From a bacterium (GTDB lineage: Bacteria > Hydrothermota > 32-111), in assembly GCA_046484245.1 (NCBI GenBank), contig JAWOBN010000021.1:1-27448 (forward strand): a DNA stretch of 27,448 nt, written 5' to 3'. The notes under the pieces are model-generated. The model was not told the DNA's origin, did not search any database, and saw nothing but the letters and a program-made list of their open reading frames with translations. A program made the position numbers and the translations under genes. This document shows positions 1,538 to 27,448 of this stretch, one piece after another (within the stretch, counting starts at the first letter, position 1; every line of letters begins with the position of its first letter).

Positions 1538-1583
1538 ATTTACAAAGACCGGGTGTCAAATCTGTTGAATTATCTCCTCAAAT
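1538..1583 (+). repeat. Left terminal inverted repeat of the Y1 element
   Basis: ATTTACAAAGACCGGGTGTCAAATCTGTTGAATTATCTCCTCAAAT is the reverse complement of 2421-2466 with 6 mismatches. Confidence 0.95.
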
Positions 1584-1592
1584 GCATATAAT
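1565..1592 (+). promoter_or_regulatory. Putative sigma70 promoter of the transposase
   Basis: TTGAAT (1565-1570), 16-bp spacer, TATAAT (1587-1592), followed by RBS AAAGGAGG and the ATG at 1614. Confidence 0.65.
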
Positions 1593-1613
1593 AATAATAC
1601 AAAGGAGGTTATT

Positions 1614-2426
1614 ATGGGAGTAATACGGATTGAAAAGGAGGGATATTATTATCATGTCATGGCAAGGGGGCAGAGGAAGAATCCCCTGTTTTTCTCAGAC
1701 AAAGATAAGTATGTTTTCCTTCAGTATCTCAGAGAGGAATTAGAGGCAACAGATATTGAGTTATATGCATACTGTCTCATGAGAAATCATTTTCATCTAC
1801 TGATCAGGCGGGGCAAGGATGATATTTCAAAATTCATGCATCATCTCAATCTGAGGTATGCGATTTATCTAAACAACAAGTACGACCTTGTAGGTCATGT
1901 ATTTCAGGGAAGATACAAGTCATTTATAATCCTGAGCATCAGGTATCTGCATACTGTGAAAAATTATATTCATTACAATCCTGTCAAAGCAGGATATGTT
2001 ATCAATGAGAAATACTATAAATTCTCCAGTGCTGATTTCTACAATGACGGTTCCTCCATTATTCCGGTCAGACGTATAAATTATGCGCGCATAATGGATT
2101 TTGATTATGACAAGATAGTAAATACCAAGAAGGGTTATATCGGTACAGAGGATGAATTCCTCACATTGCAGAAGAGGGAGAGACAAAGAAATGCTTATAA
2201 CAACAGGGAAAGAAGAGAACTCTACAGTAATCAAAGGGCATTGTTAAAAGAAATTCTGAAGAGCCATAATCTCAGTCTGAAAGAACTCAAATACTTGAAG
2301 CATGCAAAGTCAAATACTGTTGTAAAAGAAATAATGCGCGAACTTAAAGACAAAGGGCTTAATCAAACTACTATAGCTAGATTACTCAATTATTCTAGAC
2401 AAAGAGTATCTCAGATTCTTAATTGA
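1614..2426 (+). CDS. REP-associated-type tyrosine transposase (Y1_Tnp HUH endonuclease) with C-terminal helix-turn-helix
   Basis: Motifs YHVMARG, AYCLMRNHFHLL (HUH), GHVFQGRYKS, YIHYNPVKAG (catalytic Tyr region) and YKFSS. C-terminal GLNQTTIARLLNYSRQRVSQIL is HTH-like. Strong RBS. Confidence 0.92.
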   Translation: MGVIRIEKEGYYYHVMARGQRKNPLFFSDKDKYVFLQYLREELEATDIELYAYCLMRNHFHLLIRRGKDDISKFMHHLNLRYAIYLNNKYDLVGHVFQGRYKSFIILSIRYLHTVKNYIHYNPVKAGYVINEKYYKFSSADFYNDGSSIIPVRRINYARIMDFDYDKIVNTKKGYIGTEDEFLTLQKRERQRNAYNNRERRELYSNQRALLKEILKSHNLSLKELKYLKHAKSNTVVKEIMRELKDKGLNQTTIARLLNYSRQRVSQILN

Positions 2427-2466
2427 AGAGATAATTTGACAGATTTAACACCCGGTCTTAGTAAAT
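2421..2466 (-). repeat. Right terminal inverted repeat of the Y1 element (overlaps the transposase stop codon)
   Basis: AATTGAAGAGATAATTTGACAGATTTAACACCCGGTCTTAGTAAAT; contains the TGA stop at 2424-2426. Confidence 0.95.
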
Positions 2467-11542: not shown

Positions 11543-11616
11543 GGGCCCATAGCTCAGTTGGTTAGAGCGGCTGACTCATAATCAGTAGGTCCCAGGTTCG
11601 AGTCCTGGTGGGCCCA
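11543..11616 (+). tRNA. tRNA with CAT anticodon, most likely tRNA-Ile2 (lysidine-modified); CCA not encoded
   Basis: Acceptor stem GGGCCCA/TGGGCCC plus discriminator A, D-arm GCTCAGTTGGTTAGAGC, anticodon arm GCTGA-CTCATAA-TCAGT, T-arm CCAGG-TTCGAGT-CCTGG. A paired G1:C72 and lack of three G:C pairs in the anticodon stem exclude the initiator; C4:G69 and C5:G68 favour Ile2. Confidence 0.93.
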
Positions 11617-26848: not shown

Positions 26849-26893
26849 CACAGGACTGCGAATAGAACCCCACCTTAATCTATAATTCCTCTG

Positions 26894-27043
26894 CCAAGCC
26901 CCAAGTACAGTAGTTGAAAATGTTGAAACTTTTAACTTTATTTATTACTATACTTAAAGGTTTTTATGGTATAATTGTGCTTCAATACGGGGCATTTAAC
27001 TCCGGAATTTTCTACGGTTTCAACTACTGTACTTGGGATTTGG
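26894..27043. repeat. 150-bp inverted-repeat-bounded element (MITE-like, second family)
   Basis: CCCAAGTACAGTAGTTGAAA (26900-26919) / TTTCAACTACTGTACTTGGG (27018-27037) form a perfect 20-bp inverted repeat, extendable to 24/26 with the outer CCAA/TTGG. Confidence 0.8.
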
Positions 27044-27253
27044 ATTCAGTTTTACAGATTACTTTTATTTTCACTACCTGCATCTGTCACCTGTTTCTAA
27101 ATCAATGAGTCTCCGTTGTAATAATGATCTCATACCTAATATTATGAAGAGTATCCTTACAACCTCGTTATTCCTGTCGTAAACTTGTCTCAAAGGTGTT
27201 CGCATAGTCTGCAGATAACATCTTAACTTTACAAGCCCCCTGATTGAATACAC

Positions 27254-27423
27254 TTACAAAGACCGGGTGTTGTTTTTGTTGCTTAAACTGCCTAAAAAAT
27301 ATTAAGTGATATTATTCATGAACTTACACGGTGTTTACCGATTTGTTATAAAATCGGTCATTATACGGGGTTTATGCGGGTTTCATGAGATAAAGCAACA
27401 AAAGCAACACCCGGTCTTAGTAA
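27254..27423 (+). mobile_element. 170-bp non-autonomous element (MITE/REPIN-like) sharing termini with the Y1 transposase element
   Basis: 31-bp inverted repeats (27254-27284 / 27393-27423, 29/31 identical). The outer 17 bp, TTACAAAGACCGGGTGT and ACACCCGGTCTTAGTAA, are identical to 1540-1556 and 2448-2464 respectively. Confidence 0.85.
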
Positions 27424-27448
27424 TAGAGAGAGAACATTTTGTAAAATA

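Follow-up and report, generated by a model that had tools for sequence, protein, structure and literature searches.

Why does a 170-bp stretch of DNA that encodes no protein begin and end with the very sequences that bracket a gene for a Y1 protein elsewhere on the same contig? As we set out below, the 170-bp element is probably a non-autonomous partner of that gene-bearing unit, a TIRtron at 1540-2464, and would be acted on in trans by the unit's TIRYT product. The window (the whole stretch of DNA analysed here, 27,448 nt) is contig C40 of a 1.81-Mb genome in 117 contigs that is 91.78% complete (G000). The sole congener in our sample (G001) is a MAG of 330 contigs labelled candidate division WOR-3, and both assemblies are fragmented at repeats. 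The coordinates of the features discussed are collected in Table 1.

Table 1. Positions of the short element, the gene-bearing unit and the surrounding host repeat in the window.
Feature	Position	Strand	Description
TIRtron: Y1 gene plus two inverted repeats	1540..2464	+	925 bp; syntenic in G001
TIRtron left inverted repeat	1540..1579	+	35/40 positions match right repeat; no local hairpin
Promoter-like site TTGAAT-16-TATAAT	1565..1592	+	10/12 matches
TIRYT gene, 270 aa	1614..2426	+	HUH/Y1 domain, linker, C-terminal three-helix HTH (about residues 235-269)
TIRtron right inverted repeat	2425..2464	+	overlaps stop codon region
Left module, remnant of host composite repeat	27228..27253	.	ends ATACAC directly before TTAC; homology of other copies begins at 27228
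Inverted-repeat dimer, REPIN-like hairpin element	27254..27423	.	170 bp, non-coding
Left arm	27254..27289	+	17-nt terminal part (TTACA...), then two tandem ~9-nt repeats
Right arm	27388..27423	+	reverse complement starts TTACT...
Right module, start of host composite repeat	27424..27448	.	continues past contig end

The short element and the gene-bearing unit

The element and the unit at 1540-2464 have their ends in common, as the first-pass annotation had reported: TTACAAAGACCGGGTGT at 27254-27270 is also found at 1540-1556, and ACACCCGGTCTTAGTAA at 27407-27423 is also found at 2448-2464, in identical order and orientation. Equally borne out were its statements that the element encodes no protein (the ORFs inside it span just 21-47 aa) and that the window copy lacks a target-site duplication, such a duplication being absent around all 11 copies examined in G000 and G001. 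Its further claim that homology stops sharply at TTAC/GTAA holds for the comparison with the Y1 unit but not among the 170-bp copies themselves, where homology extends into both flanks. The 36-nt arms of the element are 89% complementary. An A/T asymmetry at position 5 of the arms is retained by most copies, whether from G000 or G001, and by the two gene-bearing units. Taken as a single DNA strand, the element is predicted to fold into one long hairpin (-39.4 kcal/mol, z -8.15, equalled by none of 200 shuffles); single TIRtron arms, with predicted energies of 0 to -2.1 kcal/mol (z 0.6-1.25), form no hairpin of their own.

Between the arms, an alignment of 11 copies (the window copy and 10 others, drawn from both species) keeps three short islands, namely TAAGT at about position 50, TTATG at about 118-123 and ATGAGATAA immediately inside the right arm, the rest being near random; the ATGAGATAA island recurs in the right end of the gene unit. 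Interiors are 67% identical between most copies, compared with 57.9 +/- 2.8 for shuffles, and such near-random interiors mean that the element has not undergone a recent burst. No Rfam family matched at the element or at the Y1 unit, and a scan found no terminator-like or promoter-like site within the element. A mobile-promoter role was considered and rejected, as the conserved TAAGT island, which lies at a fixed distance from TTGCTT, failed the promoter scan.

The protein encoded by the TIRtron matches the Pfam family Y1_Tnp (PF01797, E 5.4e-15) and scores 64.6 bits against the NCBIfam RAYT model NF047646, under the cut-off of 80. A sequence search of the PDB gave E. coli TnpA-REP (4ER8) as the sole match, a weak one (E 0.11) whose alignment covers the HUH and Y motifs; the same structure ranked first (E 2.2e-7, with a TM of 0.69 on the target) in a fold comparison with an AF2 model that drew on 20 relatives (mean pLDDT 83.8), ahead of the IS608, ISDra2 and IS200 transposases. 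The motifs H59-F60-H61, Y118-x3-N122 (Y118-I-H-Y-N122) and F137-S138-S139 are all intact, with H59, H61, Y118 and N122 invariant in 20 relatives and S139 conserved in at least 90%. A serine motif shortly behind the catalytic tyrosine is a trait associated with TnpAY1 subclass 2.1. At the C terminus, residues 239-270 give sub-threshold matches to HTH_3, Sigma70_r4 and HTH_28, and residues 235-269 of the model form three short helices (block pLDDT 79-93). Relatives go by the names 'transposase', 'REP element-mobilizing transposase RayT' and 'DnaA, partial', and some contain the domains PF08299 (Bac_DnaA_C), PF13384 (HTH_23) and PF13936.

Measured against its orthologue in G001, the gene as a whole has a dN/dS of 0.17, with values of 0.055 for the HUH domain and 0.305 for the last 60 codons; the HUH domain is, on these codon comparisons, under strong purifying selection. 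The orthologue (87% identical as a protein) lies between the same neighbouring genes, in a stretch of 2941 bp with 87.4% identity, and the next relative beyond it is at most 46% identical by BLASTP. A gene with these ends is single-copy in G000, and it is the single copy together with the synteny in G001 that makes it look like a domesticated, vertically inherited gene of RAYT type rather than an autonomous insertion sequence, so that the label 'autonomous', which the unit had been given at first, is not supported. The first hexamer (-35) of the promoter-like site falls within the second 9-nt repeat of the left inverted repeat; promoter-like sites in the gene region number 6 against 5.2 expected, and thus only its position argues for this one.

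Nor is the system an undescribed one, as had been supposed. TIRYTs and TIRtrons were named in 2013 (Di Nocera, De Gregorio & Rocco, PMC3733652), for Y1 genes that lie between long inverted repeats, not between REP hairpins; in the portions of that paper used here, the TIR repeats are described as dispersed in single, dimeric or grouped copies, many with a GGGGWSAS motif and others unrelated to it. Quentin et al. (2018, PMC6006769) equated TIRYTs with TnpAY1 subclass 2.1, the second largest of the TnpAY1 subclasses, its mark being a C-terminal HTH of DnaA_C/HTH_23/HTH_28 type; the relevant sections of that work find no REP-like partners near subclass 2.1 genes and doubt that the HTH reads the repeats. 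Within the same portions of PMC3733652 and PMC6006769, no biochemical test of TIRYTs is reported, and a full-text literature search found the term TIRYT confined to these two papers. The unit at 1540-2464 and its partners are a TIRYT/TIRtron system, a cousin of REPIN-RAYT, in a little-studied WOR-3-type bacterium; the unit is probably TnpAY1 subclass 2.1-like, TIRtron and subclass 2.1 probably being the same class.

Copies in two congeners and the repeat that hosts them

The 12-nt core occurs four times in the window, each time exactly; with up to 2 mismatches, 0.9 occurrences are expected and 3 of 100 shuffles reach four, a weak test because mismatches are allowed. A search of the whole of G000 for the 17-mer, with up to 2 mismatches allowed, gives 13 matches, and a reversed control gives 0. 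Twelve of these matches make up six inward-facing pairs, with spans of 170, 170, 170, 170, 171 and 925 bp, and the thirteenth (C96:89) is part of a copy already counted, because the start of its contig and the end of C111 overlap in 176 identical bases. The genome therefore holds one gene-bearing 925-bp unit, five short copies (on C39, C40, C45, C59 and C111/C96) and no solo sites. Five non-coding pairs at a fixed spacing of ~170 bp substantiate the proposal, made from the window alone, that the Y1 flanking repeats have a non-autonomous partner. They also rule out reading the motif as a transcription-factor site, since the matches are paired at fixed spacing and the sole unpaired one is a contig-end duplicate.

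Among contigs of 4 public runs (13 listed, with no RNA run among them), no joint skips exactly 27254-27423; the joints 27270>27407 and 27287>27372 in these contigs are other copies with different interiors, and neither an excision circle nor a sealed donor was seen in the runs, which are available as contigs only. In JGI metagenome contigs, a search for the paired pattern gave 0 matches, and a protein-based scan gave 190 pattern matches, 0 of them confirmed and no additional species gained.

One of 60 relatives carries the 17-mer, namely the congener G001, and a scan of 185,579 species found pairs, among the 80 loci listed (of 90 stretches), only in records of the G001 MAG, 72 of the 80 listed loci being single matches in unrelated taxa. 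In G001 the short copies number seven. The gene unit there has GGGTCT in both arms, in place of the GGGTGT of G000; the GGGTCT variant is found in 10 of 13 G001 partner arms, and the G (GGGTGT) in all G000 arms. The match between G001 partners and the G001 TIRtron extends over 31-36 nt, with 94-100% identity. The ends of G000 partners match the G000 TIRtron over 17-18 nt only, and the subterminal repeats of these partners (GTTGCTTTT GTTGCTTAA, of GTTGCTT type, as at window 27271-27288) differ from the gene units of both species. For these mismatched repeats, a chimeric end or an absent second TIRtron is a possibility, and the poor match in G000 weakens the claim of mobilisation.

In the 11-copy alignment, 93.3% of stem cells are paired and 8 of 30 stem pairs are altered on both sides. 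Neither the covariation score nor the percentage paired was attained in any of 500 shuffles (in a test that is inflated by related rows), and slid controls were 33-48% paired. Arm identity, leaving out the odd copy C317, is 84-100% within species and 68-84% between species, and the host flank modules of four copy pairs are 87-95% identical between species. At the orthologous locus C39/G001:C324, identity is 91-95% in the unique flanks, 74-81% in the arms, 57% in the interior and 48% in a 65-bp left module. Taken together, arm and flank identities indicate that the ends are homogenised per species inside older host sequence and, in G001, homogenised to the gene's own variant. The upstream gene of the window copy was not found in G001, and the C59 locus breaks at repeats there.

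At one orthologous site, G001 has a copy (C317) where G000 has none (C23). The occupied site reads ATACAC TTACAAAG...(171 bp)...CTTAGTAA ATAA TCCGGA and the empty site ATACAC TTACAAA TCCGGA, a difference of 168 nt with a boundary ambiguity of 2 nt, such that TTAC remains at the empty site. The right 42 nt of the C317 copy match the G000 gene unit at 40 of 42 positions, stop-codon region included, and by its sequence the copy looks like a deletion derivative of the parent unit. The TTAC at the empty site, which is also the target of IS608, fits insertion 3' of a flanking target tetranucleotide, by analogy with IS200/IS605. A microhomology deletion would look the same at C23, in what is a single clean case and a comparison across species. 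A flank-motif search for other empty sites in G000 found only C23.

The surroundings of the copies offer a competing account. The stretch 27247-27448 is 93% identical to the C111 copy with its flank, and four of the five G000 copies and most G001 copies sit at the same position, after ...ATACAC, in a ~370-bp repeat whose outer ~50 nt are the end of an rve-type insertion sequence. Of this host repeat the window copy keeps just 26 nt of left context. The corresponding terminal ~50 nt are found at C94:4369-4665 and C62:1-45, which carry the end of an rve/IS481-like transposase gene, and a palindromic TTTTGWCAAAA motif, which may be a recombinase or promoter site, lies within the host flanks of the copies. 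The shared position in the composite repeat means that part of the copy number can be explained by hitchhiking, without Y1 activity. In full, such an account would have a repeat dimer that inserted once, long ago, into an IS481-like miniature element and was multiplied by the DDE transposase of that element as a passive hitchhiker, on which the Y1 enzyme no longer acts. It would agree with the old, diverged interiors and with the presence of the whole composite at G001 C300/C230 and its absence from the matching G000 stretch C92, a complex, rearranged region. We nevertheless consider it unlikely, as it leaves unexplained the species-specific arms inside flanks that are 87-95% identical between species, the long match of G001 partners to the G001 TIRtron, the difference between C317 and C23 that involves the inner element alone, and the G001 copy C248, which lies outside the host repeat.

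Paralogous units and the build of their arms

The window TIRtron is one of several such units in the genome. G000 has 15 Y1_Tnp matches, comprising 13 ORFs of 199-324 aa and two contig-end fragments, and 10 of the 13 ORFs have inverted repeats of their own of 20-40 nt. Short partners are found for other types as well: 19 of the C108 type at 157-159 bp (25 with looser matching), one each of the C102 and C90 types, and two of the C109 type at 414-415 bp. Of the 61 genomes in the phylum sample, 37 have members of the Y1 family; in other genera, TIRs were detected at 5 of 6 loci with an ORF found, and no ORF was found at 5 further loci.

Several side observations concern these other families. Hairpins of 157-159 bp with the ends of the C108 TIRtron lie at 25 G000 loci (for example, C59:32460-32617 and C23:7014-7171), embedded between conserved flanks, one of ~75 nt and one of ~45 nt. 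Searching for this 158-bp family with a loose motif gave mostly noise. Near 15028 on C117 there is a perfect palindrome, ...AAAACCACCC TCCAA TTGGA GGGTGGTTTT..., which resembles a site of the 158-bp family with 5 nt per end left and could be a hairpin-loss footprint or an unrelated palindrome. In the window, directly upstream of the 170-bp element, 26876-27061 is a second, different repeat dimer, whose arms (26876-26931 and 27006-27061) show 75% complementarity and belong to the type found around the Y1 gene on C20. A related-strain contig of run X5 lacks 26881-27182 (302 nt) and has 16 nt instead, which identifies that stretch as an insertion polymorphism. A tRNA gene is found at window 11543-11616 (Rfam RF00005, 76.4 bits).

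The paralogues have a common arm build, in which a GC-rich end of ~17 nt is followed by two tandem repeats of ~9 nt. An offset of 9 is the best in 10 of 17 arms, and at least 7 of 9 positions match in 8 of 17 (0.38 expected; 0 of 500 shuffles), although the 17 arms are related and the pattern is absent in more distant genera. Between G000 and G001, the window TIRtron pair is identical at 140 of 145 residues of the N-terminal (HUH) domain and at 16 of 17 positions of the 17-nt end, with 19 of the last 40 residues and 13-14 of the 18 subterminal nucleotides identical. The C85 pair has 37 of 40 tail residues and 17-18 of 18 repeat positions identical between the congeners, and the C109 pair 34 of 40 and 15 of 18. 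Drawn from three orthologous pairs, this co-divergence of tail and repeat is a lead. We tentatively raise the possibility that TIRYTs use a two-part recognition code, co-evolving with a private hairpin population. In such a code the near-invariant 17-nt end would be recognised by the near-invariant HUH domain, and the two neighbouring 9-nt repeats, which resemble DnaA boxes, by the fast-evolving HTH.

With some 13 Y1-HTH paralogues in the genome, the G000 partners might be served by a different enzyme, either another of these paralogues or a TIRtron that the 92%-complete assembly lacks; partners and window unit have just the terminal 17 nt in common. Besides the incompleteness of G000, the subterminal repeats of its partners speak for such an enzyme, as they are nearer to the GTTGCA type of C46 and G001:C78 than to the window TIRtron. 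This explanation seems to us improbable nonetheless, given that, even with 2 mismatches allowed, the 17-mer is found beside none of the other Y1 genes of the assembly and that in G001 the partners match the orthologue of the window gene along the whole arm.

Two of the paralogues, C43 (oriented ORF 1731-2546) and C85 (2600-3415), have lost the HUH histidines (RTEYQLL and RTEYYLL, respectively) and the catalytic tyrosine. Both retain the HTH and inverted repeats of 39-40 nt, and the C85 unit is nearly unchanged in G001; they may be catalytically dead DNA-binding derivatives. It is very doubtful, however, that the hairpins in general are host-serving rather than mobile (as terminators, RNA stabilisers or nucleoid sites, with the HTH protein a binding factor or a repressor of its own promoter), for while these two paralogues, the -35 inside the gene's repeat, and the conservation of arms and interior islands amid a drifting remainder would suit such a role, the scan of the element gave neither a terminator-like nor a promoter-like site, the presence/absence difference and the turnover of ends between species suggest mobility or conversion, and the HUH domain is strongly constrained.

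A candidate mechanism and its closest relatives

Mobilisation of the 170-bp element by the TIRYT enzyme, the reading that we prefer, is plausible, and the comparative support for it is better than is usual for the class. The TIRYT gene itself would stay put and be inherited vertically, its product acting in trans on DNA that has its repeat ends. Once an element is single-stranded, as might happen at a replication fork, its 30-bp arms would pair, and in the resulting long hairpin the two ends would lie side by side. The two subterminal ~9-nt repeats may then be held by the HTH, and the HUH/Y118 centre would cut and rejoin at the invariant 17-nt terminal part. The outcome would be either excision and re-insertion beside TTAC without target duplication, or an exchange of ends between copies, and such excision or exchange could keep ends alike within a species and matched to the gene's own repeats. 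Many copies share one preferred site within a larger miniature element derived from an IS, and would also travel with that element.

Among known systems, TIRYT/TIRtron is the closest. Here, too, a RAYT-like Y1 protein is longer than RAYTs and ends in an HTH, long non-hairpin inverted repeats bracket the gene, repeat copies are dispersed and often dimeric, and several TIRYT genes with different repeats share a genome. Differences are the absence of GGGGWSAS from the 17-mer and its extension (some paralogues have near matches such as AGGGACAG), a much larger number of paralogous units (~10 with repeats in 1.8 Mb), the two-part arms and the WOR-3-type lineage; cross-species covariation and an empty site are likewise seen here, whereas the portions of PMC3733652 and PMC6006769 used contain no such evidence.

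REPIN-RAYT, as presented in the portions drawn on of Bertels & Rainey 2011 (PMC3116915) and Bertels et al. 2017 (PMC5581495), likewise combines a single-copy, vertically inherited Y1 gene that has its own flanking repeat with non-autonomous partners in which two inverted copies fold as a hairpin, each gene having a private repeat population. By contrast, the repeat described here is no REP, without a palindrome of its own or a GTAG foot, and the elements are longer (170 bp, with a ~100-nt loop), number 5-7 per genome instead of hundreds and have unconserved interiors. In IS200/IS605, according to the mechanism as summarised in the relevant section of PMC6006769, the target tetranucleotide flanks LE. 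Elements of that group (such as IS608) and their miniature derivatives resemble the present system in the HUH/Y1 fold and the lack of a target duplication, and the one empty site, with its 2-nt ambiguity, would fit their insertion beside a left-flank tetranucleotide; unlike them, it has no subterminal hairpins at single ends, Y-x3-N in place of Y-x3-Q, symmetric ends, and a gene unit that is neither multi-copy nor mobile. DDE-type MITEs are similarly short and non-coding, with terminal inverted repeats common to a protein-coding parent (40/42 nt for C317), but here there is no target-site duplication, and a tyrosine HUH nuclease takes the place of the DDE transposase as candidate enzyme.

What is new here is that G001 partners carry G001's own repeat variant, that one orthologous site is occupied in G001 and empty in G000 with TTAC kept, and that ~10 paralogous TIRtrons with their own partner families are found together in 1.8 Mb. 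The genus amounts to a natural experiment, with the same gene at the same locus in two species, ends and HTH tails that seem to have diverged together, and partners that follow the local variant. With two such congeners, it becomes directly testable what TIRYTs do and how the reading of the repeat is divided among their domains. The 170-bp element is otherwise ordinary selfish or domesticated repeat DNA. If the two-part code and its private lineages, the turnover of ends and the empty site are what they appear to be, they would be the first natural evidence of TIRYTs moving or converting their partners at a defined site.
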